A stretch of DNA of 64,000 nucleotides, taken from the NCBI GenBank assembly GCA_030650425.1, contig JAUSED010000008.1:196554-260553 (forward strand), written 5' to 3'. The position numbers were made by a program, and so were the translations under genes. A model generated the notes under the pieces. It was not told where the DNA came from and did not search any database. It saw only the letters and a program-made list of their open reading frames with translations. The stretch comes from Candidatus Omnitrophota bacterium. Its GTDB lineage: Bacteria; Omnitrophota; Gorgyraeia; Gygaellales; Profunditerraquicolaceae. Shown here piece by piece: positions 13,716 to 25,955 of the stretch; within the stretch, counting starts at the first letter, position 1; the number at the start of each line of letters is the position of its first letter.

Positions 13716-14342
13716 GTGAGTAATCCCGGGCCTACTATTTATATCGTTGATGATGATCTCTCTGTGTGCAGGGCCTTGTCCTTATTGTTAAAGTTACACG
13801 GATTCAAGCCGCAGACGTTTACGCGCTCCGCGGATTTTTTAGCGTGTTCGCATCCTAAGGTCCCATCGTGCCTGGTACTCGATATTCGCCTTCCGGATAT
13901 CAACGGGCTTGCCCTGCAGGATGCTATGGCAGAGCGGAAACTGATCATCCCGATTATCTTTATCACCGGGCATGGGGATATCCCGATGAGCGTGAAAGCT
14001 ATGAAGGCTGGAGCTGTTGATTTTCTTCCCAAGCCTTTTACTGAAAAGAAGCTGCTTAATGCTGTTACCGCCGCTATTTTAAAAAGCAAGGCTCAAAATA
14101 GAGAACAAGCCGAAATATCAAAAATTAAGCGCCGCGTTAAAACTTTGTCTCCGCGGGAACTAGAGGTTTTTCGGCTCGTAGCTAAGGGGATGTTGAGTAA
14201 GCAGATCGCCCGTAAACGGGGAACCAGCCTTCAGACGATCAAAGTCCACCGCGGCCGGGTTATGCAAAAGATGCAGGCTAAGACCGTCACTGAACTTATC
14301 CGCTTTGCCCAAAAATGCGGCATTACTCCTCCTGAGCGCTAA
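13716..14342 (+). CDS. FixJ/NarL-family response regulator (receiver + LuxR-type HTH)
   Basis: IYIVDDD...LDIRLPDINGL receiver; LSPRELEVFRLVAKGMLSKQIARKRGTSLQTIKVHR HTH. About 78% identical to the paralog at 22845..23471. Confidence 0.85.
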   Translation: MSNPGPTIYIVDDDLSVCRALSLLLKLHGFKPQTFTRSADFLACSHPKVPSCLVLDIRLPDINGLALQDAMAERKLIIPIIFITGHGDIPMSVKAMKAGAVDFLPKPFTEKKLLNAVTAAILKSKAQNREQAEISKIKRRVKTLSPRELEVFRLVAKGMLSKQIARKRGTSLQTIKVHRGRVMQKMQAKTVTELIRFAQKCGITPPER

Positions 14343-14400
14343 TTATACCTGAGTACAATTGATTTAATTCCGATATATTTCTATAATCACAGTATAAGAT
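14341..14400 (+). promoter_or_regulatory. Copy 1 of the conserved promoter/operator element (tacaaTTGATTtaattccgatatatttcTATAATca), upstream of the pilus-like cluster
   Basis: TTGATT at 14359-14364, 17-nt spacer, TATAAT at 14382-14387. Shares the upstream ATTATACCTgAGTACAATTG block with copies at 21545-21615, 23505-23570 and 25901-25955. Confidence 0.5.
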
Positions 14401-14468
14401 TATTCACAATTCACTGCCTTACTTATAGCCAGGCTTTAAAGTTTGCCTGAAGAAGATTGCGGGTGAAT

Positions 14469-15863
14469 ATGCGTAAAAATAAATATTTAACAGCGCTAAT
14501 TCTGATTTTATCATTTTTAGCCGTTTCTTTGCCTGTTTTAGCCGCGGATATTTTTGACCTTACTTATACGCTTACCGAAGGCGGATATCAGTTAGAATTA
14601 AATCCTGTTAATTTATATAAAGGCGTTAATTTAAGAGTGGATACCAATATCGGCAGGCGCTACGAAATTATTCAAAGAATTATTCAGCCGTTAACAAGCA
14701 AAGATAATCCCGGGGTAATGATTCAGGATAATTTTGTGGTGCGCGGTATAAGCGGTTCCAATAGATTCGGGAACCTGCGTTTCTCTACCGGCGGTATAGC
14801 CGTAAGGTCAGAAGATATTATCTACGTTTCTGATAGCGCGGGTGACGCGGATAATTTTTCTTTAGTCTATGGCCTGATTAACGCGGAAAATTTACAGCCT
14901 GGGTATTATTCAGGGCGTGTTAGTTTTACTTTGAATCCTATTTCGTCAAGCCAGCAGCAGATTACCAGGATTTTAGAGGTGTATGTATCGATAACGGCTC
15001 AAGGCCGGGAAAAGCCCCGCGTTGAGATAAGCGCTTCCAGCGGCTCAAAATCTATAACGCTTAACCCTAAAAAAGAAAAGAATCAAGCGAAAGAGGAAGT
15101 TTTTATAAAAATTAATTCGACTGAGAAAAAGCAATTCAGTATAGTCCAGTTTGTGCCCGAGCCCATGGAATCAGAATCCGGGGATATTCTGGATAATCAA
15201 GCGGTAAATTTTATAGTAAGAAACGCGGAAAAAGGCGTGTCAACAAATATGGTTAGCGCGTTAACTTCCAGTCCGCAGAAGATTTATACTTCCGGTATTG
15301 ACGGCAGCGCGGATAATTCTCTGGTGGTTACATATATCTTAGGGGACCTAACGGCTAAAAAATCAGGAAAATATAAATCTCGCGTACAGTATTTATGGGA
15401 AGAAGCAGGCGCGCAGACAAAAATAGACAGCTTAGAACTGTTGATTGATAACGAGCGGATATTTAATTTGATCGTCACTCCTGCGGATCAAAAATACGAA
15501 ATTGAATTCCGCGGCCTTAAGCCTTTGGGCCAGCCTAAGGCCAGCGAGGTAATCTTAGAGGTTACCAGCAATACCGGTAAACCTTATCAAATAAATCAGG
15601 AGATATCCAGCGGCTTGGTGAATAAGGAGGGGTTAGAGATTCCTGCTCAATATTTTACGCTGCGTACTGAAAATATTAATAGCAAGGGCAATTTTAAATT
15701 TCTTGAAAAGCAAGAAGTAAAAAAAGGCAATACTATTTTGTTTGTTTCGGATAGCGAAGGCGCGCCCGCCAAGATAAAAGTTATTTACGAATTGACTAGC
15801 CCTGTGGATTTAAAAGCGGGAGACTATCTGGCTAATGTTACCTATTCTTTGTTAGAGATGTAA
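14469..15863 (+). CDS. Secreted multi-domain protein with three SCPU/pilin-like repeats (candidate tip or minor pilus subunit)
   Basis: Signal peptide. Each ~150-aa module ends with a G-x-Y-x-x-x-V-x-(Y/F)-x-L strand (GYYSGRVSFTL, GKYKSRVQYLW, GDYLANVTYSLL), as in the C-terminus of the 197-aa subunits. A TTG start at 14457 is also possible. Confidence 0.45.
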   Translation: MRKNKYLTALILILSFLAVSLPVLAADIFDLTYTLTEGGYQLELNPVNLYKGVNLRVDTNIGRRYEIIQRIIQPLTSKDNPGVMIQDNFVVRGISGSNRFGNLRFSTGGIAVRSEDIIYVSDSAGDADNFSLVYGLINAENLQPGYYSGRVSFTLNPISSSQQQITRILEVYVSITAQGREKPRVEISASSGSKSITLNPKKEKNQAKEEVFIKINSTEKKQFSIVQFVPEPMESESGDILDNQAVNFIVRNAEKGVSTNMVSALTSSPQKIYTSGIDGSADNSLVVTYILGDLTAKKSGKYKSRVQYLWEEAGAQTKIDSLELLIDNERIFNLIVTPADQKYEIEFRGLKPLGQPKASEVILEVTSNTGKPYQINQEISSGLVNKEGLEIPAQYFTLRTENINSKGNFKFLEKQEVKKGNTILFVSDSEGAPAKIKVIYELTSPVDLKAGDYLANVTYSLLEM

Positions 15864-15952
15864 CTTGTTTAATTATCAGGAAGGGGGGCAAGGTATTTGT
15901 TGGTTAGGTTGAATTAAAAATCAGGATTTGTTTCATTAAAAGGAGGAAGGCT

Positions 15953-16546
15953 ATGAAAAAAAGAATTATTTTAGGAGCAGCGGGTTTGGTGCTTGGGTTG
16001 GCGTCACTGTGTTTTGCCGCCACAAGCATAAGGATAGCAGCTACCATCGGTGAGACGCATCAGATGAATGTAGCTTTAAGTAGAGTCGCAAGCCAAGGCG
16101 CGACCCCGACTCTGGTTGCTGATCTTACGGGTACAGGCATGGATTTTGGCACATTGACAGAAAATCCTACGGATCATAATTTCAGGTCGACTGTTTTTTT
16201 CTTTATAGACGCGCCTGTAGTTTCTAATAAAACAGGCTGGACTATAACTCACACCGCCACTGATTTTGCAAATTCCGCGGGTAATAATTTAAACGCCAAC
16301 ACGAATGTAACGTTTATGAAGGCAGTTCCCGGAGGGGAAACCGCGCTTACTGGTAATAGTTATGTCAGCTACTCGGCGGCTAAAACAAGAGCGGCAATCG
16401 CGCAAGCCGAGCTTACCGGCGGCTGGTTAAGAATTTATTACGGTATCGCCCAAGGCTCCCTCGACGCGCCCGGCGTTAATGTTATTACTACGGCTATGCC
16501 GACAGGCAGTTATGTGGGGACGGTAACTTTAACTCTTTCTCCGTAA
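15953..16546 (+). CDS. Secreted 197-aa pilin-like subunit (Spore-coat-U/Csu-type archaic chaperone-usher subunit-like), paralog A
   Basis: Signal peptide, a Thr/Ser/Asn/Gly-rich beta-rich body, C-terminal GSYVGTVTLTLSP. About 70% identical to 17554..18150. Confidence 0.5.
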   Translation: MKKRIILGAAGLVLGLASLCFAATSIRIAATIGETHQMNVALSRVASQGATPTLVADLTGTGMDFGTLTENPTDHNFRSTVFFFIDAPVVSNKTGWTITHTATDFANSAGNNLNANTNVTFMKAVPGGETALTGNSYVSYSAAKTRAAIAQAELTGGWLRIYYGIAQGSLDAPGVNVITTAMPTGSYVGTVTLTLSP

Positions 16547-16570
16547 GCGGGGTAACTTTATTAAAGCATC

Positions 16571-16617
16571 AATGCCGGAAGAACAGCCTTAAAAAAGCGT
16601 TTTGTCCTTCCGGCATT
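16571..16617 (+). promoter_or_regulatory. Intergenic hairpin (11-bp stem aatgccggaag/cttccggcatt, ~25-nt loop) between subunit A and the chaperone-like gene; candidate partial terminator or attenuator setting subunit stoichiometry
   Basis: Perfect inverted repeat followed by GTTGCTTTATCTT. Confidence 0.35.
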
Positions 16618-16645
16618 GTTGCTTTATCTTAGCTCAAGGAAAATA

Positions 16646-17533
16646 ATGAAAAAAACTATGTTTAAGCGAAGTATGATTATTTTATTTCTTTTATGCCTAG
16701 CGGGATTTTTAAGTTTAGCTGGCGCGGTAGACCTTCCCAATATCAATAAATCAAAGATAAGGTTTTCTATCGCTCCGGGAAAGGCTGAATATGGAGAAAT
16801 AATTGTGGAGAACCAGAGCGCTGAGCCGCGGAGCATGCGGGTATATTTGTCGGATTGGGATTATTTACCTCCGGCTGATGGCACCAAAGAATTTTTACCG
16901 ATTAGCTCAACACCTCTATCTTGCGCCGCGTGGATAAGTTTCTCTCCCGCGGAGTTTATTTTGCCCCCATTTAGTAAACAAAAAATAGATTATTCCGTTA
17001 AGGCGCCTGCCGGCGCCTCCGGCGGTTATTATGCCGCGTTATTTTTTGAAAGCATCTTCGCCAAAGCGCAAGCCCCCAAGGAAGGGATGCAGGTGGGGAT
17101 GAATCTGGTGATCAGGATTGCCACTCTTTTTTATGTCGACGTAGAAGGCACGGTTAAGAGGACAGCTTCAATCGATAACTTATTATTTAAGAAAGACGTT
17201 GGAAAGGTTCAGTATTCTATTGGGTTGGATTTTCGTAATACCGGAAATGTCGATATTAGCGCGGGGGGCACATTTCATATAATGGACGATAAGGGTATGG
17301 TCATTGCCAGAGGCGAGTTGAATGATGCCTATACTTTTCCCGCGGCTGGCGCTAAGCTGGCCGCGACACTTAAAGAGGGCCTTCCGAAAGGCAAGTATGA
17401 TTTAGTTTTCACCCTAGATTTAGGCAAAGCGCTTGAAGAAGCAAATATAGGCAGAGGGCCGATTATCACCAAAGAAGCCGAAATATCAATTGGCGAAAAC
17501 GGTAAGATTTTAAATATTGGCCAGTTAAAGTAA
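16646..17533 (+). CDS. Secreted Ig-fold protein, candidate periplasmic pilus chaperone (PapD/CsuC-like)
   Basis: Signal peptide. The N-terminal segment KIRFSIAPGKAEYGEIIVENQSAEPRSMRVYLSDWDY fits the chaperone F1-G1 pattern (R-V-I-Y ... V-x-N ... S-W). Size and position (between two subunit genes) match a chaperone. Similarity is weak. Confidence 0.35.
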   Translation: MKKTMFKRSMIILFLLCLAGFLSLAGAVDLPNINKSKIRFSIAPGKAEYGEIIVENQSAEPRSMRVYLSDWDYLPPADGTKEFLPISSTPLSCAAWISFSPAEFILPPFSKQKIDYSVKAPAGASGGYYAALFFESIFAKAQAPKEGMQVGMNLVIRIATLFYVDVEGTVKRTASIDNLLFKKDVGKVQYSIGLDFRNTGNVDISAGGTFHIMDDKGMVIARGELNDAYTFPAAGAKLAATLKEGLPKGKYDLVFTLDLGKALEEANIGRGPIITKEAEISIGENGKILNIGQLK

Positions 17534-17553
17534 GATGAAAAAGGAGAAAGAAG

Positions 17554-18150
17554 ATGAAGAAAATAATATTTTTAGGAGCAGCGGGTTTGGCGCTGGGGTT
17601 GGCTTCATTGTGTTTTGCTGGCACAAGCATAAGAGTAGCAGCTACCATCGGTGAAACGCATCAGATTAATGTGGTCCTCAATAGAGTCGCAAGCCAGGGC
17701 GCGACCCCGACCCTGGTTAGCGATCTTACAGGCACAGGCATGGATTTTGGCACATTGGTAAAAGGCGCGGATAATAATTTCAGGTCGCCTGTTTATTTCT
17801 TTATAGACGCGCCTGTGGTTTCTAACAAAACAGGCTGGACCATAACTCACACCGCCACTGATTTTGCCAATTCAGCGGGTAATAATTTAAACGCTAACAC
17901 GAATGTGGTATTTGAGAAGGTGGATAACTTAACTAATTCGGAACTCGCGCTTGGGAATAATTACTTTACCAGCTACGCGGCAGCTAAAACAAAATCAGCA
18001 ATTACGCAAGCTGAACTTGCGAACGCCCGCTTAAGAATTTACTACAGTTTAGCCAGCGGCGCCGGAGACGCGGCAGGGGTATCGGTTATCACCGCGGCTC
18101 AGCCGACAGGCAATTATGTGGGGACGGTGACTTTGACTCTTTCTCCGTAA
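17554..18150 (+). CDS. Secreted 198-aa pilin-like subunit, paralog B
   Basis: Signal peptide, C-terminal GNYVGTVTLTLSP; paralog of 15953..16546. Confidence 0.5.
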   Translation: MKKIIFLGAAGLALGLASLCFAGTSIRVAATIGETHQINVVLNRVASQGATPTLVSDLTGTGMDFGTLVKGADNNFRSPVYFFIDAPVVSNKTGWTITHTATDFANSAGNNLNANTNVVFEKVDNLTNSELALGNNYFTSYAAAKTKSAITQAELANARLRIYYSLASGAGDAAGVSVITAAQPTGNYVGTVTLTLSP

Positions 18151-18151
18151 G

Positions 18152-20947
18152 ATGAAAAAGTTTAGCGTCATTTTATTAATTTTGATTTTTTTTTCCTCCT
18201 TCGTTTTGCCTTCCCATAGTTACGCTCTTGTGCCGGAATACCTTTGTGAAACCGGGATTAAGTTTTACCAGCAAGGCAGGTATAGCGAAGCCCTGCAGGA
18301 ATTTAATAAAGCCCTGTTAATCGCGGCTAATTATGAGCCTGCCTTAAAATATATCCATAAGATTCAGGCATTAGAATTCCAAGAGCCGCCGGAAGAGAAA
18401 AGCATTGAAATAAATTTAGAGCCCTCCCGCAAAAACCCTATTCTAGAACGAGAAATCGCCATGGAAAGGGCGCTAAAAGTTATTAGCCGCAAAAATCCTA
18501 TCCTAGAACGGGAAGCCGTAATGGAAAGAGTACTCAGGTTAGAAGAAAAGAAAAGGCGAAAAGCCCTCTTGTCCCAGCCAAAAGTTCTTACCCTTGATGA
18601 ATTATTAGCTAAGCTAACCGGTGCTTTAGAAATTGAGCAGGGTAAGAGTTTAAGCCTGCATAGCTCAGGTATGCGGCGATTTTTGGTCACCCAGCCGGAT
18701 ATTATCAGGGTGGAAAGAAATACCTCTGAGCAAATATTAGTCACGGGTATTAATCTTGGCTATACCTATTTACATGTTTGGGATGCTAACGGACGCCATA
18801 CTTTGGAAATTCTTACGGTTCCTGCTAAGCCAGAAGGAGAATCATTAGAAGATATATCGCGCCGGGAAGAAGAAAAAGCGAGAAATTTTAAACTGACTTA
18901 TTCTATGGATTGGTCCACTTATGCTACCGGCGCAAGATGGGCTGCTTTAAAACGTTCGAATTATTATTACATCCATAATTTAGGGTTGGCCGGAGAGACG
19001 CCATACGGAAACCTTGATTCATCGCTGGCGGTAAACCGCTATAATAGCCTTACGGAGCTTACGCATTATACTTTGGGCTTAACTAACGGTAAATTTGGCG
19101 ATTTTAAGGATTTTACCCTGCGCGCTTTTGATTTTTTTGACATCCCTCCGGATTTTTCTAACCTCGCTTTCCCCGGGATACCCTTAAGGGGGGCTATGCT
19201 TGCTTCTCCGGCATTCAATAATAAGCTTAATTACACTGTGTTTTCCGGTAAAGAAAATTGGTCCGGATTTGCCGGTCTCTCTCCCGCGTTAAACCAGGAA
19301 AGGAAGGCCTATTTAGAAGGATTGAATATCGGCTTTACTCCCACGAAAAAGCAAAATTATAAATTTACCTTAATTCACGGCTGGGGCAAGGATCGAGGCC
19401 CGGCGCTTAAATCTTTAGGCTATGATTTAATGGGTGATTGGCTTTTAGATAAGTGGAAATTGGGGTACGAGTCGGCCAGCGATACAAAAAATTTTGCCAA
19501 TCTTTTAAAAATAGATTATCTCCGGCCAAATTTAAGTTTTAACGCGCAATTAAGGGATATTGATAAGGGTTTTGAGAGCATAACCGGGAGCGGATGGAGC
19601 CAGGGGCAGTTAGGCGGGCTGTTTAATTTTAATTACAGGCCTTGGGAAAAATTAGAAATATATAGCAGTTTGGATCTTTTTAAAGACAGGTTATATCCGG
19701 CTCCGGGAAACAATAATCGTTGGAATGAGGATTTTAACTGGAATAGCGTTTATAGGGTTGACCCCCTAACTTCATTATCTCTAAACTACACTTTGCAGAA
19801 TGAATTAGGCAGGATTTCACAATATCGTTATCAAAGCATAGACGCGGGCATCAACCGGACTTTTAAGTTTTTTAAAGATGTAAATTTATTCCTCAAATAT
19901 TATGATCAGCAGAATACAAATTTTTCTTCCCCTGTTTCTAGTTACAGTAACCAACGCGTCTATGCGGGAGCCAAAATTAATCTTACGCGCGATTTATACT
20001 ATTACGCGAACAAAGAGATTAATTGGTTAACTGAAAGATCTAGCGGTAACAAGACTCAGCCTCAAGCTTTTGAAACAGGGCTGGATTGGAGCGGGCAGAT
20101 TGGTAAATCGCCTTTGTTTGGGGCTTGTCGTTTCACCTACAGGGATGAACAAGATACGACGTCAAATTTAAGTTTTCTTTCGGGTGAGGATTATATCGAA
20201 GGTTATTCTGAATTATCTTATCGGCCGACTACAGATACTCAAGTTTACGGTTCTTGCCGGGTGCGCAATGTTTGGGCGGATAATCCTAATGTGAATAAGC
20301 GCCTGGAAGCAAGTTTTAACGCGGGTATACGTTTTCTTTGGGATACGGGTATAAATTGGCAGGCAGTTGGCGATATTGATGGATATGTGTTTAAGGACCT
20401 GAATTATGATGGGATAATGGAAAGGGATGAGCCTCCGGTAGAGGGAATAAAGGTGCGGTTGGGCAGGAATAGGACTGCCGTGACAGATATCTTTGGTTAT
20501 TATCAATTTAAAAATGTCCGGGGTAATAAAGTTTATGTTAATTTAGACACTGCTACGATACCAAATGGTTTCGTGCTGACTGTTCCGGCAACTCAAGGCG
20601 TCTCTATCAGTCAGTATCAGACCGCGCGGGTGGATTTCGGCATAATCTCCCGTTCTGAAATATTCGGCTATGTCTTTGAAGATTTAGACGGTGATAATCA
20701 GCTTGATAAGAAGGATAAAGGAATCCGCAATGTTGTTATTATATTAGAAGATGGCGCCAAAAGGACTACGGATAGCGGCGGTAAATATTCATTCTCGAGT
20801 GTTTCCTCTGGCGAGCATGAGATAACCTTAGATTTAAATACTCTGCCGGTTTATTATCTGCCCAAGACAGTTTTGACAAAAAAAATCACCCTTTTTGAGG
20901 GTGTAGCCTATAATTATAATATTCCTCTGAAAAGAACTAAAGAATAG
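18152..20947 (+). CDS. Large outer-membrane protein (931 aa): signal peptide, N-terminal TPR, pilus-formation pil_N/BON-like domain, central beta-barrel-like region, two C-terminal Cna-B/SdrD-like beta-sandwich domains. Candidate usher or secretin-like pilus export component.
   Basis: Starts 2 nt after subunit B. The pil_N-like segment is VTQPDIIRVERNTSEQILVTGINLGYTYLHVWDANGRHTLEILTV. The middle has alternating aromatic/polar stretches. The two C-terminal repeats are DIDGYVFKDLNYDG...YYQFKNV and IFGYVFEDLDGDNQLD...KYSFSSV. Confidence 0.45.
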   Translation: MKKFSVILLILIFFSSFVLPSHSYALVPEYLCETGIKFYQQGRYSEALQEFNKALLIAANYEPALKYIHKIQALEFQEPPEEKSIEINLEPSRKNPILEREIAMERALKVISRKNPILEREAVMERVLRLEEKKRRKALLSQPKVLTLDELLAKLTGALEIEQGKSLSLHSSGMRRFLVTQPDIIRVERNTSEQILVTGINLGYTYLHVWDANGRHTLEILTVPAKPEGESLEDISRREEEKARNFKLTYSMDWSTYATGARWAALKRSNYYYIHNLGLAGETPYGNLDSSLAVNRYNSLTELTHYTLGLTNGKFGDFKDFTLRAFDFFDIPPDFSNLAFPGIPLRGAMLASPAFNNKLNYTVFSGKENWSGFAGLSPALNQERKAYLEGLNIGFTPTKKQNYKFTLIHGWGKDRGPALKSLGYDLMGDWLLDKWKLGYESASDTKNFANLLKIDYLRPNLSFNAQLRDIDKGFESITGSGWSQGQLGGLFNFNYRPWEKLEIYSSLDLFKDRLYPAPGNNNRWNEDFNWNSVYRVDPLTSLSLNYTLQNELGRISQYRYQSIDAGINRTFKFFKDVNLFLKYYDQQNTNFSSPVSSYSNQRVYAGAKINLTRDLYYYANKEINWLTERSSGNKTQPQAFETGLDWSGQIGKSPLFGACRFTYRDEQDTTSNLSFLSGEDYIEGYSELSYRPTTDTQVYGSCRVRNVWADNPNVNKRLEASFNAGIRFLWDTGINWQAVGDIDGYVFKDLNYDGIMERDEPPVEGIKVRLGRNRTAVTDIFGYYQFKNVRGNKVYVNLDTATIPNGFVLTVPATQGVSISQYQTARVDFGIISRSEIFGYVFEDLDGDNQLDKKDKGIRNVVIILEDGAKRTTDSGGKYSFSSVSSGEHEITLDLNTLPVYYLPKTVLTKKITLFEGVAYNYNIPLKRTKE
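18425..18544 (+). repeat. Tandem 60-nt direct repeat inside the OMP gene, encoding SRKNPILEREIAMERALKVI / SRKNPILEREAVMERVLRLE
   Basis: cgcaaaaaccctattctagaacgagaaatcgccatggaaag versus cgcaaaaatcctatcctagaacgggaagccgtaatggaaag, 60 nt apart. Confidence 0.8.
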
Positions 20948-20948
20948 C

Positions 20949-21236
20949 TTAGCGGCTATAAAGCGTTTCTAAATCAAGTAAAAGTTTTTCTCCCGCGATA
21001 ACCCTTATTTCTTGGGTGTCTTTCTGGAAGATTGCCGGAGAGTTAGCCTGTTCTTTTGTGTTTGTAACCCTAGGCTCCTGAAGAATAGGCATATTTTTTC
21101 CGGGTATAGCAGGGATAATGCAGGATATTCTTACGGAATAACTATTGTCAGCTGCCATTACCGGATATAATAATGCCAAGGTGAATACCGCGGATATAAT
21201 CAGCCTAAGCGTTATTTTTGTAAGTTTCAGCTCCAT
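20949..21236 (-). CDS. Small secreted protein (95 aa), the only minus-strand gene in the window
   Basis: ATG at 21236 with a GGAG RBS on the minus strand; signal peptide LRLIISAVFTLALLYPVMAA. Convergent with the OMP gene. Confidence 0.35.
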   Translation of the reverse strand: MELKLTKITLRLIISAVFTLALLYPVMAADNSYSVRISCIIPAIPGKNMPILQEPRVTNTKEQANSPAIFQKDTQEIRVIAGEKLLLDLETLYSR

Positions 21237-21263
21237 TTTATCCCCCACTCCTTAAATCCCTCA

Positions 21264-21544: not shown

Positions 21545-21615
21545 GGTACCGTAAAATCTTACGATTATACTTAGGTACAATTGATTTAATTTCTGTCACT
21601 CCTATAATAAAATTG
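21545..21615 (+). promoter_or_regulatory. Copy 2 of the conserved promoter/operator element (gtaaaatcttacGATTATACtTAGGTACAATTGATTtaatttctgtcactccTATAAT)
   Basis: TTGATT 21581-21586, 16-nt spacer, TATAAT 21603-21608; about 65 nt conserved with copy 4 and partially with copies 1 and 3. Confidence 0.55.
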
Positions 21616-21682: not shown

Positions 21683-22678
21683 ATGACCATTCTTATTGTG
21701 GACGATAACGAGCCAAATCTCTGTCTACTCCAGGTTCTCCTGAATGGAAACGGGCATCAGGTTGTCAGTGCCGCCAATGGCGCCGAGGCGTTAGCCAAGG
21801 CGCGGCAGAATCCGCCGGATATTGTCGTCAGCGACATCCTGATGCCGGTGATGGACGGGTTCGCCTTGTGTCGTGAATGGAAGAAGGACGAACGCCTGCG
21901 GCAAATCCCGTTTGTTTTCTACACCGCGACCTACACCGATGAGCGCGATCGAGAGTTCGCGCTCAGTCTTGGCGCGGAGCAATTTCTCGTCAAACCGGTG
22001 GAGCCGAAGGCCTTCATGCGAACGATTCTGGAAGTCATCCAGCAAGTCCAGCGTCCGTCCGCAGCGCCGACCCGCGTGCCGATCGAAGCGCCGCGGCAAG
22101 AGGAAATCGGCTATCTGAAACAATACAACGAGGTACTTATCCGTAAGCTAGAAGCGAAGATGGAGCAGTTGGAGCAGGTCAACCGCGAACTGGAACGCGA
22201 CATCACCGAGCGCAAGAAGACGGAAGCGGAATTGAAAAAGTCTGAACAGGAATTGCGCGAAGATAAATTGCTTTTGGAACAGAAGAACTTAGCCCTGGCG
22301 GAATTATTAGAGCATATGGAAAGGGCTAAGAATAAGACAAAAGAAGATATAGCGATAAATGTGGAAGAATTCATAACGCCGATTTTAAAGAAACTAAAAA
22401 TAAAAGGCGCCTCACCTAAATATATTAAACTGCTCGAGCATCATTTGAAGGAATTAATCTCGTCTTTCGGCCGTAAGATAACACAAAGAAGCACGAGGTT
22501 ATCATCTCGAGAAATTGAAATTTGTGACATGATAAAAGGCGGCCTTTCCAGCAAAGAAATTTCTGAACTTTTAAATGTATCCTACCAGACAATAGACAAG
22601 CACCGCAGAAATATCAGAAAAAAGCTAGCCATAGCTAAGAAAAAAGTTAATTTAACCTCTTTTCTGCAAAAACTCTAA
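21683..22678 (+). CDS. Response regulator: CheY-like receiver, coiled-coil linker, C-terminal LuxR/GerE-type HTH. Chimeric composition, with the 5' ~570 nt GC-rich and the 3' part AT-rich.
   Basis: ILIVDDNEPN...VVSDILMPVMDG receiver; LSSREIEICDMIKGGLSSKEISELLNVSYQTIDKHRRNIRKKL HTH. A sharp GC shift occurs near nt 22250. Confidence 0.7.
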   Translation: MTILIVDDNEPNLCLLQVLLNGNGHQVVSAANGAEALAKARQNPPDIVVSDILMPVMDGFALCREWKKDERLRQIPFVFYTATYTDERDREFALSLGAEQFLVKPVEPKAFMRTILEVIQQVQRPSAAPTRVPIEAPRQEEIGYLKQYNEVLIRKLEAKMEQLEQVNRELERDITERKKTEAELKKSEQELREDKLLLEQKNLALAELLEHMERAKNKTKEDIAINVEEFITPILKKLKIKGASPKYIKLLEHHLKELISSFGRKITQRSTRLSSREIEICDMIKGGLSSKEISELLNVSYQTIDKHRRNIRKKLAIAKKKVNLTSFLQKL

Positions 22679-22844: not shown

Positions 22845-23471
22845 ATGAACAACCGCAGGTCTATTATCTATATCGTTGATGACGATGTCTCTGTGTGCAG
22901 GGCTCTATCTTTATTGTTAAAATCACACGGGTTTAAGGTTGAGACGTTTACGCTCGCGGCAGACTTCCTGGCATTTAAGCGCCTTAAATTGCCATCGTGC
23001 TTGATCTTGGACATCCAGCTGCCGGATATCAATGGGCTTGTCCTTCAGGAAACAATGGCCGCACGACAACTTACGATTCCCATTGTTTTTATCACCGGAC
23101 ATGGCGATATCCCAATGAGCGTTAAAGGCATGAAGGCAGGGGCTATTGATTTTCTTCCTAAACCCTTTACTAAGAATAAACTACTTGATGCCGTAACCTT
23201 GGCCATCTCAAAAAACAAAATCCAAATTAAAGAACAAGCCGAAATAGCAAAAATTAAGCGCCGCATCAAGACCTTGTCTCCGCGAGAACTAGAAGTTTTT
23301 CGACTCGTAGCCAAAGGGATGCTGAGTAAGCAGATTGCTCGAAAGCGGGGAATTTCTCTCCAGACGATAAAGATTCACCGTAGCCGGGCGATGCGGAAGA
23401 TGCAGGCTAAAACCGTGACTGAGTTCATCCGCTTTGCCCAAAAAGCAGGTGTTACTTCCCCCCAGCGTTAA
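22845..23471 (+). CDS. FixJ/NarL-family response regulator, paralog of 13716..14342
   Basis: IYIVDDDVSVCRALSLLLK ... LSPRELEVFRLVAKGMLSKQIARKRGISLQTIKIHR; 208 aa. Confidence 0.85.
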   Translation: MNNRRSIIYIVDDDVSVCRALSLLLKSHGFKVETFTLAADFLAFKRLKLPSCLILDIQLPDINGLVLQETMAARQLTIPIVFITGHGDIPMSVKGMKAGAIDFLPKPFTKNKLLDAVTLAISKNKIQIKEQAEIAKIKRRIKTLSPRELEVFRLVAKGMLSKQIARKRGISLQTIKIHRSRAMRKMQAKTVTEFIRFAQKAGVTSPQR

Positions 23472-23504: not shown

Positions 23505-23570
23505 TGCGAGGCAATAGTAAAATCCTACGATAATACCTAAGTATAATTGATTATATTTTTATTTTTTGTA
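23505..23570 (+). promoter_or_regulatory. Copy 3 (degenerate) of the conserved element (gtaaaatcctacGATAATACCTAAGTATAATTGATTatattttt) upstream of the autotransporter gene
   Basis: Shares the gtaaaatcYtacGAT(t/a)ATAC block and TTGATT with copy 2. The -10 is less clear. Confidence 0.4.
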
Positions 23571-23648: not shown

Positions 23649-25838
23649 ATGAAGCGAATACTTTTTCTCCTGTTTTTCGTTGCTGCTATGGTGGTTTGGT
23701 GTACGCCGAGTTTTGCTGTGCAAACAGTTAACCCTGCCGGTGATACTTTGAGCGCCACCGGTGTTTCTGAGGGAGTCTTTATGAACGATGGGGGACTTGC
23801 GGATCTCTTGACTGTTGGGGCGCAGGATATCTTTACAAACAACAAAGCTAGCGAGGGTGTTGCTACGGACAAAACTCTATCTGCTGTTTACACCACCAAC
23901 TCCGCTAAATCCAGTATAACCATTACCGGTAACTCGACTGTGTATGGAAGAATCAGCGGTATAGATCCCGCAGGTGAAAAAACATTTGTCCTCATCACCG
24001 CAGGCGCTAGCGGCAATACGGTAAATTTTCTTGGAAGGGTCAATGCGACGGAAGTGGATATCGGAACCGGTACAGTAAATTTCAAAAGCGGAAACTCGAG
24101 TGACGCGAAAACGGTTATTACTGGTGTCGGCGGCACGCTCGGTCTTGATGTGAATACGACAGTCGTAGGCGCTCTCACGACTACGGCGGGAGACAATACG
24201 GGTACGTTGTCGCTTGCTAGTGGTAGTCAATTGACTGGCGCCGTTGGAGCAGGTGCTGCTAAGGTTCATACTATCAATGTTGTTGGGGGGAGTAATACTG
24301 CCGGGGTGAGAGCAGACATCGTTGGCGCGGTCTACACCCATGAATTTTCACTCTTGACGAATCATTTGGCTATTGACGGCGCTTTCACAATCGCTGCTGC
24401 CGGGACATTTAATACGACCCTGGCCGGCACGGCCTTGACGCAATACGGCCACATCACTGCGACCGGAGCCGCAAACATTGGAACAGGGATCGGGGTTCAA
24501 GTGACTGTTCCCGCGGGGACGTACATTCCGCTGGGGACCCTGTTTGATGTCGTCAACGCTACCGGCGCCATCACTGCTGATATTATTCCCACGATAACAA
24601 CCGTAGGTGATACCAATCCTCTTTATACGTTTGACGTCGAGCCTATCACTGGTACCGCAGCGGGTAAGTTAACAATAAAGACTACCGGTACACCGATACA
24701 GCCAGCGGATCCTGTTCCGGATCCTGTAGCCAATGCAGCAGCGCCTGCTTTAGGAGCTCTTCCAGCGACTGCCCCTGTTATAATTGCAATTAATGCTCTT
24801 ACTACTCCAGGCGCGGTCGCTAGCGCAGAAGCACAGCTTGCTCCGTCAACCGCGTCTTTAGCATCGCCTTTATTGACATTTCAAGGAGTTAGAGAGTTTC
24901 AGACTCTTTGGTTGAATCGTCTGGACGCGTGTGGTCAGGTTAGCTGGCCCAGCGAAAATAAAGAGAACTGTAAAGGCAGCACTGCTGATAACGGCTGGTG
25001 GCTGAAAGGCTTTGGATATTTTGGTCATCAAGATAGCAGAAGCGGTTTTACGTCGTATGATGCCAGCATTCTCGGCTCTATGATCGCTTACGACAGGTCT
25101 CTTGGCCTTAATACGCGCGCGGGCGTAGGACTTGGTTATGCTCGAACTAATATACAAGGAAAGGTGTACGACGCCAACACGCAAACCGATACCTATCGAG
25201 CAGTAGCTTACATTGGTCATGAGTTTTGGTCTTGGTTCGTTGATGCTAGTGGGTCATTTGGTTGGAATGAATACCGGGATAGGCGCCACGTTGAATTTCC
25301 CGGTATGGATACTACGGCGAAAGCCAAGTATGACGGACAGGATTACACTGCTTTTGGAAGGGTCGGGTATCATCTCCCCGCTTTTCATGAATTTATTGCC
25401 ACGCCGATGGCCTCACTTCAATATACTCGTATAAATATAAGTGGCCGCACGGAAAAGGGCTCTTCTGATGATATCAATATGAAGGTGAGATCTCAGCGTT
25501 ACGATTATCTGGAGTCTGGCTTAGGAGCTAAGGTAGAGCGCCCCTTCAACTATAATAGTAAATTCACGTTTGTTCCTGAGGCGCACTTTGAGTGGCTGCA
25601 TAAGCTTTCTAATCCAAGGATAAAACAGACTACTACGTACGTCGCAGGCTCGGATTCGTTTACAACTCCAAGTTTAAGGACGGTTGCTGATTCTTACCGT
25701 GCCGGAGTAGGCCTCAATCTTCTTTCGTGTGCCTGTAGCGCGACAATATGGTCGGTTGAAGCCGGTTACGACTATTATTGGAGAACTGACGGTTACGCCG
25801 CTAATCAGGTGTCAATGAGAGTCAGCAGGCGTTTCTAA
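23649..25838 (+). CDS. Autotransporter (type Va secretion): signal peptide, Gly/Thr/Ala/Val-rich beta-helical passenger, C-terminal 12-strand beta-barrel translocator
   Basis: Signal peptide MKRILFLLFFVAAMVVWCTPSFA; passenger rich in GT/NT/AG dipeptide repeats. The C-terminal ~280 aa has alternating hydrophobic strands (WLKGFGYFGHQDS..., GVGLGYARTN...) and ends in RRF (terminal aromatic). Confidence 0.8.
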   Translation: MKRILFLLFFVAAMVVWCTPSFAVQTVNPAGDTLSATGVSEGVFMNDGGLADLLTVGAQDIFTNNKASEGVATDKTLSAVYTTNSAKSSITITGNSTVYGRISGIDPAGEKTFVLITAGASGNTVNFLGRVNATEVDIGTGTVNFKSGNSSDAKTVITGVGGTLGLDVNTTVVGALTTTAGDNTGTLSLASGSQLTGAVGAGAAKVHTINVVGGSNTAGVRADIVGAVYTHEFSLLTNHLAIDGAFTIAAAGTFNTTLAGTALTQYGHITATGAANIGTGIGVQVTVPAGTYIPLGTLFDVVNATGAITADIIPTITTVGDTNPLYTFDVEPITGTAAGKLTIKTTGTPIQPADPVPDPVANAAAPALGALPATAPVIIAINALTTPGAVASAEAQLAPSTASLASPLLTFQGVREFQTLWLNRLDACGQVSWPSENKENCKGSTADNGWWLKGFGYFGHQDSRSGFTSYDASILGSMIAYDRSLGLNTRAGVGLGYARTNIQGKVYDANTQTDTYRAVAYIGHEFWSWFVDASGSFGWNEYRDRRHVEFPGMDTTAKAKYDGQDYTAFGRVGYHLPAFHEFIATPMASLQYTRINISGRTEKGSSDDINMKVRSQRYDYLESGLGAKVERPFNYNSKFTFVPEAHFEWLHKLSNPRIKQTTTYVAGSDSFTTPSLRTVADSYRAGVGLNLLSCACSATIWSVEAGYDYYWRTDGYAANQVSMRVSRRF

Positions 25839-25900: not shown

Positions 25901-25955
25901 TGATTATACCTAGGTACAATTGATTTAATTTCTGTCGTTTCTATAATAACACTAT
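25901..25955 (+). promoter_or_regulatory. Copy 4 of the conserved promoter/operator element (tGATTATACCTAGGTACAATTGATTtaatttctgtcgtttcTATAAT)
   Basis: TTGATT 25920-25925, 16-nt spacer, TATAAT 25942-25947. Nearly identical to copy 2. Confidence 0.55.

Follow-up and report, generated by a model that had tools for sequence, protein, structure and literature searches.

We found that a stretch of DNA from a Candidatus Omnitrophota bacterium (contig JAUSED010000008.1, positions 196,554 to 260,553; 64,000 nucleotides in all, hereafter the window) carries a conserved gene cassette which, in our interpretation, encodes a chaperone-assisted donor-strand system for a surface fibre or adhesin, with a WxLIP-type chaperone and an outer-membrane protein (OMP) that is not an usher. 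We give this interpretation a probability of about 0.55; the evidence for the whole analysis is computational. The cassette in the window comprises four adjoining gene types in five open reading frames (ORFs) on the plus strand (14457/14469-15863, 15953-16546, 16616/16646-17533, 17554-18150 and 18152-20947), and a sixth ORF on the minus strand, s99 (20949-21248), runs convergently to them and is the conserved fifth gene type. Subunit A, the chaperone-like protein and subunit B are exact matches to the NCBI entries Q7K98_04475, Q7K98_04480 and Q7K98_04485, respectively. An earlier inspection of the same letters (the original prediction) had proposed an archaic chaperone-usher-type pilus locus at 14457-20947. 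Its ORFs were confirmed, as was its operon logic of subunits, chaperone, OMP, multi-module protein and hairpin, but s99 had been left out and the assignment to the archaic family did not hold. The features are as follows:

14345 to 14387, plus strand: a 20-bp palindromic element, ATACCTGAGTACAATTGATT, overlapping a sigma-70-like promoter (TTGATT-17-TATAAT).
14457 to 15863, plus strand: T468, a secreted protein of three tandem subunit-like modules of ~150 amino acids (aa).
15953 to 16546, plus strand: subunit A, 197 aa, with a signal peptide, an N-terminal strand of alternating hydrophobicity, a beta-sandwich and a C-terminal strand.
About 16570 to 16618, plus strand: a strong RNA hairpin lying between the genes for subunit A and the chaperone-like protein; the tail behind it is weakly U-rich.
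16646 to 17533, plus strand: the chaperone-like protein, 295 aa, periplasmic, with two immunoglobulin-like (Ig-like) lobes according to its AlphaFold2 (AF2) model.
17554 to 18150, plus strand: subunit B, 198 aa, paralogous to subunit A and carrying its N- and C-terminal motifs.
18152 to 20947, plus strand: the OMP, 931 aa, with a signal peptide, TPR, pil_N, a beta core and two SdrD_B/Cna-B-like domains.
20949 to 21248, minus strand: s99, directly after the OMP gene and convergent with it.

Relatives of the chaperone-like gene were found in at least 143 species-level genomes. We read 79 species-level genome loci, nearly all of them labelled Omnitrophota and a few with generic or placeholder labels, and found that the order T468, one or two subunits, chaperone-like protein, OMP and s99 (minus strand) is kept across them, which bears out the conserved gene order to which the original prediction had looked as a check. 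T468 is the first gene of the cassette in most of these loci. Among the 47 loci whose flanking sequence leaves room for it, 38 have the full set of five gene types. Gene junctions are short or overlapping and the order is strict, both in the 79 loci and in more distant lineages. The neighbouring genes outside the cassette vary from locus to locus, indicating that the cassette is self-contained. No paper in the literature that we searched describes it or ties Omnitrophota to chaperone-usher pili.

The AF2 model of the chaperone-like protein, built with 57 homologs, reached a pLDDT of 91.5 and consists of two beta-sandwich lobes. An F1-G1-like hairpin spans residues 127-166, with long strands at 127-139 and 153-166, and the only low-confidence loop of the model (140-152) lies between these two strands. 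In a Foldseek search of the PDB, WxLIP of Enterococcus faecium (9i1y/9i25) ranked first with an E-value of 3.6e-11, and CfaA, FimC, CsuC, Caf1M, CupB2 and EcpB, which cover every chaperone-usher class, followed at 1e-9 to 1e-8. The two-lobed Ig-like fold expected from the original prediction is thus supported by both the model and the structure search. The F1-G1-like pattern, however, had been placed at the N-terminus of the protein and is found instead at 127-166, and the sequence relatives lie in the WxLIP superfamily rather than with PapD or CsuC.

The window protein had no match in Pfam or NCBIfam. Matches to WxLIP_PGBD (PF06030) below the cut-off were obtained for 14 of the 57 homologs (best E-value 3.7e-4), and PapD_N (PF00345) and PapD_C (PF02753) were absent from the best 25 of the 26 Pfam families that these homologs matched at E<=10. 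A profile search through 1.84 billion cluster representatives collected 9,222 relatives at E<=1e-3. One of them, P0476, matched the family profile at an E-value of 2e-44 and scored 35.7 bits against WxLIP_PGBD, compared with a cut-off of 27.3, and 8e-5 (E-value) against WxLIP_HBD (PF11797); together with the homolog matches, it supports membership of the WxLIP superfamily through intermediates. The profile also reached Escherichia coli EcpB at an E-value of 0.0095. In hhalign, the pair gave 81% with an E-value of 1.2e-5, and the alignment brought into line the F1 strand (GGYYA.LFFE), the G1 strand (IRIATLFYV, containing R157) and the NTGN motif of domain 2. On these sequence grounds, and by way of intermediates, we assign the chaperone-like protein to the WxLIP (DUF916/DUF3324) superfamily, with EcpB as a distant relative.

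Three basic residues of the chaperone-like protein are invariant, two in the first strand (K37 and R39) and one in the G1-like strand (R157), and we take them to parallel Arg8 and Lys112 of PapD by their positions in the sequence, as distinct from positions in three dimensions. The protein ends in ...GENGKILNIGQLK, and no hydrophobic segment follows the second Ig-like lobe, either in the window protein or in the family consensus. Having no C-terminal membrane helix, it should be soluble in the periplasm; a lipoprotein or a membrane-anchored protein was considered and ruled out from the sequence.

Subunits A and B are 75% identical (~70% in the original prediction), and both indeed end in the G-x-Y-V-G-T-V-T-L-T-L-S-P motif that had drawn attention to them. 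G185, Y187, G189 and T194 are invariant in 66 homologs. The mature N-terminus of subunit A reads TSIRIAATIGE, the family consensus being I-x-V-x-A-x-I-P, and its C-terminal strand follows the pattern G-x-Y-x-G-T-V-T-L-T-L-S-P. AF2 modelled subunit A as a beta-sandwich (pLDDT 91.9), in which residues 19-35 lie outside any strand and residues 21-30 are of lower confidence (pLDDT 79).

The fold of the subunit was matched weakly by a TasA fibre (8aur, probability 0.90), by one chain of the CFA/I chaperone-tip adhesin entry 6k73, by archaeal bundling (7ueg) and Tafi (9p0a) pili and by a phage capsid jelly-roll. The best Foldseek E-value was 0.02, and no Csu pilin appeared among the top 50 matches. 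The subunit profile found no PDB sequence at E<=10, subunit A itself had no Pfam match, its 66 homologs gave no consistent one, and SCPU (PF05229) and Fimbrial were absent from the best 25 of the 40 Pfam families that they matched at E<=10. With no family match and only weak fold matches, the subunit is not recognisably SCPU/Csu or any other pilin. The proposed SCPU/Csu affiliation, for which the C-terminal G-x-Y-x-G-x-h-T-h-T-h strand had served as a mark, is therefore not backed by any of these family or fold searches, nor was the anticipated similarity of the 197-aa proteins to pilin Ig folds significant in Foldseek. A WxL domain, suggested by an apparent likeness of motifs (W-T-I..., ...V-T-L-T-L-x-P), was likewise tried and found unsupported: WxL (PF13731) was absent from the same best 25 of 40 families, and the WxL-containing entry 9i25 from the top 50 Foldseek matches.

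Several loci vary in their subunit genes. Most related loci have one or two of them upstream of the chaperone gene, and the window is unusual in that the second lies between the chaperone-like and OMP genes. In two loci (L018:7260-7901 and L031:369-1004), the place of the subunit is taken by a ~212-aa protein of another type, which matches the T468 profile but retains an N-terminal E-T-I-T-A-x-A-x-V strand and a C-terminal G-x-Y-x-G-T-[VI]-K-L-D-V-Y-A-L. This suggests that cassettes can exchange one type of subunit for another. Upstream of another cassette, a 487-aa ORF (L037:392-1855, plus strand) joins a ~300-aa N-terminal extension to a complete C-terminal subunit domain that keeps the N-terminal strand motif EIKVKINIP. 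The extension looks glycoside-hydrolase-like, suggesting that the subunit domain may carry enzymatic cargo. In six further Omnitrophota loci (L043, L047, L070, L046, L056 and L057), either two chaperone-like genes lie side by side or part of a second cassette is present.

T468 likely starts at the ATG at 14469, giving 464 aa (468 aa from 14457). As had been proposed, it is built of three modules with a common end motif. The modules are homologous to one another (hhalign 99.5-99.8%, E-values 1e-23 to 1e-29), and each ends in G-x-Y-x-x-x-V-x-[FY]. No significant match was obtained for T468 in Pfam or among PDB sequences, and SCPU and Fimbrial were not among the Pfam families listed for its 49 homologs. 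Module 1 aligns weakly to the C-terminal two thirds of the subunit (hhalign E-value 1e-4, 56%). In distant loci a T468-type module occurs as a stand-alone secreted protein of ~150 aa, and one intermediate from such a locus, L090_188, matches both the subunit and the module profiles. The intermediate and the module 1 alignment together indicate that subunits and T468 modules probably form one superfamily. T468 has no subunit-type N-terminal strand, and we regard it as a candidate tip or distal component.

The small gene s99, whose likely start is the ATG at 21236, lies on the opposite strand after the OMP gene in 56 of the loci read (51 of the 79 genome loci together with L001-L003, L009 and the window). 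Its product begins with a signal peptide and a conserved mature N-terminus, from which a variable linker leads to a C-terminal x-V-x-T-I-Y-S-R that is likewise conserved. The mature N-terminus, S-x-S-I-x-V-S-C-T-I-P-A-I-P-G-V-N-A-P, is of the subunit type. When signal peptides were included, s99 and the subunit N-termini aligned at 97% in hhalign (E-value 9e-12), and the mature N-termini aligned in register at an E-value of 2.5e-4, compared with 0.3-0.5 for controls. A lipoprotein was excluded, since the conserved Cys lies ~10 residues past an A-x-A-type cleavage site with no lipobox before it, and also since homologs have L, F, I or V in place of this Cys. A minus-strand terminator-like site is found at 20903-20887, 46 nt downstream of the s99 stop. 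Judging from these sequence features, s99 is a candidate for a cap, anchor or nucleator that contributes a donor strand and nothing else.

Pfam recognised TPR_2 at residues 28-59 of the OMP, T2SS-T3SS_pil_N at 158-218 (E-value 1.2e-8, above the cut-off), two SdrD_B domains (E-value 3.7e-18), which with their Cna-B-like character occupy about 740-931, and CarboxypepD_reg. The same architecture was seen in 120 homologs. With the exception of CarboxypepD_reg, these are the domains named in the original prediction, which was also right that the protein is no canonical usher: neither Usher (PF00577) nor Secretin (PF00263) occurs in the window OMP or in the precomputed Pfam lists of the 120 homologs, and the window OMP had no Usher match even at E<=1. 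An hhalign comparison of the OMP profile with FimD and EcpC stayed below 1%, a test of low power, as the single-sequence controls FimC-EcpB and FimD-EcpC failed. Against PDB sequences, the profile found only TPR, SdrD_B and a weak secretin N-domain (8jvb).

Between these domains lies a core of ~490 residues (~240-733) for which the PDB profile search detected no relatives and no barrel family. It is rich in aromatic residues (15.8%), Asn (9%) and Gly (8%), and its hydrophobic runs do not exceed 4 residues. The dyad (period-2) hydrophobicity of the core stands at z ~4, and it has 19 amphipathic peaks against 9.3+-2.4 in shuffled sequences, whereas the flanks remain at shuffle level. The core ends in the beta-signal-like FNAGIRFLW, in which W730 is invariant, and about 24-26 strands were counted by eye. 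Chou-Fasman prediction returned 16 strands on the OMP and was uninformative, so that periodicity relative to shuffles was used instead. The barrel-like core of the original prediction is consistent with the periodicity and the amphipathic peaks but finds no barrel-family match, and we consider a large amphipathic beta-barrel likely from composition and periodicity. A diverged secretin or usher was rejected for the core, as neither hhalign (of low power for ushers) nor Pfam gave a signal. The NCBI record annotates the OMP with 905 aa (97% coverage); the typical signal peptide of the 931-aa ORF and homologs of 903-946 aa that align over the full length indicate that the deposited start is probably too far downstream.

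More distant loci show how the outer-membrane component varies. Relatives L088-L090 follow the same logic with an OMP of the pil_N/SdrD_B type. In sister loci from other candidate lineages (L085:292-5667, L086 and L087:2904-8075), tandem-duplicated WxLIP-like proteins of 526-566 aa, each of two full copies, are encoded directly 5' of a true secretin (PF00263), and small secreted proteins precede them. One sister locus or cluster with a secretin is related to Candidatus Aerophobetes, and L087 also has a separate gene resembling a secretin N-domain. The OMP core did not match the secretins of the sister loci in hhalign, while an N-terminal TPR-like helix pair is common to the OMP and one of these secretins (hhalign 67%).

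The hairpin behind the subunit A gene lies in the 111-nt stretch 16540-16650, whose folding energy is -39.3 kcal/mol (z = -5.2); none of 200 shuffled sequences folded as well. Of 67 related loci, about one third have a hairpin of -20 kcal/mol or lower at the corresponding site. The strong fold agrees with the partial terminator postulated earlier; the stoichiometry-setting role given to it is an extrapolation, and the hairpin may act as an attenuator or stabiliser that sets an excess of subunit.

Upstream of the cassette, a PAS histidine kinase and a FixJ/LuxR-type response regulator are encoded, and the first copy of a 20-bp element begins at 14345, both as described in the original prediction. 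The element, ATACCTRRGTAYAATTGATT, has the core palindrome ATACCTAGGTAT and overlaps the -35-like TTGATT of a promoter-like site at 14359-14387; the ATACCTGAGTACAATTGATT element and this promoter are likely the operator and promoter of the cassette. Four plus-strand copies of ATACCTRRGTAYAATTGATT are present in the window (14345-14364, 21567-21586, 23533-23552 and 25906-25925), where 0.02 would be expected. They precede, in turn, the cassette, a response-regulator/GerE gene (21683-22678), an autotransporter gene (23649-25838) and whatever follows the autotransporter, and the cassette promoter region can be aligned with the DNA in front of the autotransporter gene. This arrangement suggests a small regulon of surface-protein genes. 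The autotransporter, a 729-aa protein encoded on the plus strand with an Autotransporter beta-domain (PF03797, E-value 8e-50) and a Thr/Gly/Ala-rich passenger, lies behind the third copy and is therefore maybe co-regulated with the cassette. Two paralogous 208-aa FixJ/LuxR-type response regulators (13716-14342 and 22845-23471, plus strand) are 77% identical. The gene for each is followed directly by a copy of the element and then by surface-protein genes, namely the cassette for the first regulator and the autotransporter for the second.

Taken together, these observations lead us to propose the following mechanism. The beta-sandwich subunits, that is, the two major 197/198-aa proteins and the 464-aa three-module protein, would be exported by Sec and captured in the periplasm by the soluble, two-lobed WxLIP-superfamily chaperone, whose F1-G1-like hairpin would complete the sandwich by donor-strand complementation. 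K37/R39 and R157 would lie at the site where the C-terminus of the subunit is anchored in chaperone-usher chaperones. Chaperone-subunit complexes would dock on the 931-aa OMP, whose TPR and pil_N domains, beta core and two C-terminal beta-sandwich domains are arranged like the parts of an usher, though with no homology detected, and the N-terminal strand of an incoming subunit would displace the chaperone strand by donor-strand exchange, so that the fibre grows from its base. The three-module protein would be found at the fibre tip, since T468 is without an N-terminal strand. Having an N-terminal strand and no acceptor body, s99 would cap and anchor the fibre, or else nucleate it. Expression would probably be controlled by the PAS kinase and the FixJ/LuxR-type regulator through the palindromic operator at the promoter. 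Polymerisation is the simplest explanation for the combination of an N-terminal strand in the subunits with a strand-only s99, fused T468 modules, and paralogous subunits followed by a hairpin.

Several points weigh against this mechanism. The similarity between s99 and the subunits is short (18 columns, and 43% in hhalign without signal peptides), and it could be a shared targeting signal instead of a donor strand. The fold matches of the subunit are all weak (Foldseek E-values of at least 0.02, TM 0.2-0.37). That the OMP forms a barrel, and on which side of the membrane its SdrD_B domains lie, are things that we infer. To our knowledge, the WxLIP-WxL complexes of Firmicutes do not polymerise. 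Moreover, fibres on Omnitrophota cells have been reported only as type IV and Tad pili (PMC10066038).

The alternative that survives best, and which we nevertheless regard as unlikely, is an export or display system without polymerisation, a diderm counterpart of the WxL/WxLIP clusters in which the WxLIP-like protein would stabilise its partners by strand complementation and the OMP would export them or keep them at the surface as monomers or small complexes, for instance as adhesins or enzymes. It would sit well with a chaperone-like protein that belongs by its relatives to the WxLIP superfamily and has WxLIP as its best structural match, with the 'large WxL' proteins, whose N-terminal functional domains the L037 fusion resembles, and with the sister loci, where secretins serve as generic export channels. 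In WxL clusters, too, a single WxLIP goes together with two partner proteins, small or large (PMC10599100). However, among the matches listed, the subunits hit WxL neither in Pfam nor, for the WxL chain of 9i25, in Foldseek, and the chaperone-like protein has no WxLIP membrane anchor. Polymerisation is further favoured over display by the alternating N-terminal strand common to the subunits and s99, by the tandem modules of T468, and by paralogous major subunits followed by a hairpin.

A mere co-location of genes, with the OMP as a porin for nutrient uptake or polysaccharide export and the secreted proteins as binding proteins or enzyme accessories, is improbable. TPR-plus-barrel and CarboxypepD_reg-plus-barrel layouts do also occur in exopolysaccharide porins and SusC-like transporters. 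Such a reading has difficulty, however, with a strict order and short or overlapping junctions across 79 species-level loci and distant lineages, and with a chaperone fold whose conserved, putative cleft residues point to subunit handling; moreover, no glycosyltransferase, TonB-box/plug or transporter gene lies in or beside the cassette in the loci read. About as improbable is a highly diverged archaic (SCPU/Csu-like) chaperone-usher pilus with a diverged usher and diverged SCPU pilins: Foldseek matched CsuC and other chaperone-usher chaperones strongly (1e-8), the sequence profile reached EcpB, the OMP layout parallels that of ushers and the C-terminal strand of the subunit resembles the SCPU motif, but Usher, PapD_N, PapD_C, SCPU and Fimbrial are missing among the Pfam matches listed for the window proteins and 57-120 homologs per family, the N-domain of the OMP is a secretin-type pil_N with FimD and EcpC below 1% in the low-power hhalign test, relatives of the chaperone-like protein pass the WxLIP_PGBD cut-off, and the subunit model has no significant pilin match.

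If the proposed donor-strand fibre system is real, it would be a previously unknown attachment organelle for Omnitrophota, ultra-small bacteria that are thought to be host-dependent or predatory and whose attachment factors discussed so far are type IV and Tad pili and giant ORFs (PMC10066038). The cassette is annotated as hypothetical and yet present in at least 143 species-level genomes, making it a concrete new candidate for attachment, and the ~9,200 cluster representatives of the chaperone-like family (E<=1e-3) are almost all unannotated. Beyond this phylum, we suggest only tentatively that the cassette and its sister loci represent an unrecognised class of outer-membrane fibre assembly, widespread in uncultured diderm phyla, that combines soluble WxLIP-type chaperones with a non-usher conduit (OMP or secretin) and a strand-only terminator or anchor. 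Chaperone-assisted donor-strand assembly has so far been tied to the usher in diderms, and the cassette would show the chaperone module to predate the usher and to be more portable. It would form an evolutionary bridge between Gram-positive WxL/WxLIP complexes, the Pam pili of Candidate Phyla Radiation (CPR) bacteria and proteobacterial chaperone-usher pili, and the origin of the latter would become testable by structure-based phylogeny.

The cassette shares with chaperone-usher systems (the ECP class EcpA-EcpB-EcpC and archaic Csu) Sec-exported beta-sandwich subunits with a C-terminal G-x-Y...h-T-h-T-h strand, a two-lobed Ig-like chaperone whose F1-G1 hairpin is long and whose first and G1 strands bear conserved basic residues, and a large OMP that starts with a periplasmic domain and closes with two beta-sandwich domains. 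The gene order agrees as well: the subunit precedes the chaperone and the OMP, and a hairpin lies behind the major subunit gene. The cassette differs in that Usher (PF00577), PapD_N/C, Fimbrial and SCPU domains are absent among the Pfam matches listed, and in that the OMP has a secretin-type pil_N and TPR as its N-domain and a core without a detectable relative. In addition, the chaperone, at ~270 aa in its mature form compared with ~200-230 aa, falls in the WxLIP superfamily, and the fold of the subunit cannot be recognised as a pilin Ig fold. The Tad and type II secretion system (T2SS) secretins (RcpA/CpaC, GspD) resemble the cassette OMP in the pil_N domain, which is typical of Tad secretin N-termini, whereas the OMP core fits a classical amphipathic barrel by composition and periodicity.

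The WxL/WxLIP clusters of Enterococcus, Listeria and Lactobacillus (PMC10599100) provide the best structural match of the chaperone, sequence links to it and an 'IDK' motif near the N-terminus, and they too combine one WxLIP-like gene with small and large partner proteins. For WxLIP, the prediction is that its disordered hairpin adopts an ordered form and completes the WxL partner's beta-sandwich (PMC10599100), and the structure of a WxLIP-WxL complex has been solved (9i25). By analogy, the predicted hairpin insertion would amount to donor-strand complementation and offer a precedent for the mechanism. Unlike these clusters, the cassette belongs to an organism that appears to be diderm, given the cassette OMP and the autotransporter encoded in the window; its chaperone would be soluble, with no C-terminal transmembrane helix and no implied role in peptidoglycan anchoring; and its partner proteins have no WxL domain among the matches listed, while the WxL complexes themselves are not known to form fibres. 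The TasA/TapA fibres of Bacillus and the archaeal bundling (AbpA) and Tafi pili gave the best, though weak, fold matches of the subunit and use an N-terminal donor strand. They have neither a dedicated two-lobed chaperone nor an OMP, and the subunit family has no listed Pfam match to them. TapA, an accessory protein that donates a strand, nucleates TasA (PMC10151520), a role that s99 might have as an alternative.

Set beside the cassette by description, the Pam pili of CPR bacteria are conceptually its nearest counterpart among recent discoveries. They are assembled with PapD-like two-domain chaperones, their terminator inserts its N-terminal strand into the last pilin, and Pam pilins are reported to be exclusive to CPR bacteria (bioRxiv 10.64898/2026.03.03.709456). 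Pam chaperones and the Pam terminator are membrane-anchored, and there is no outer-membrane component, in contrast to the cassette. The two are alike in having a donor-strand fibre (proposed here for the cassette), an uncultured, host-associated, ultra-small lineage, operon-encoded chaperones and a tip pilin without a donor strand, and the terminator/anchor role of the Pam system, again compared by description, is the role that we propose for s99.

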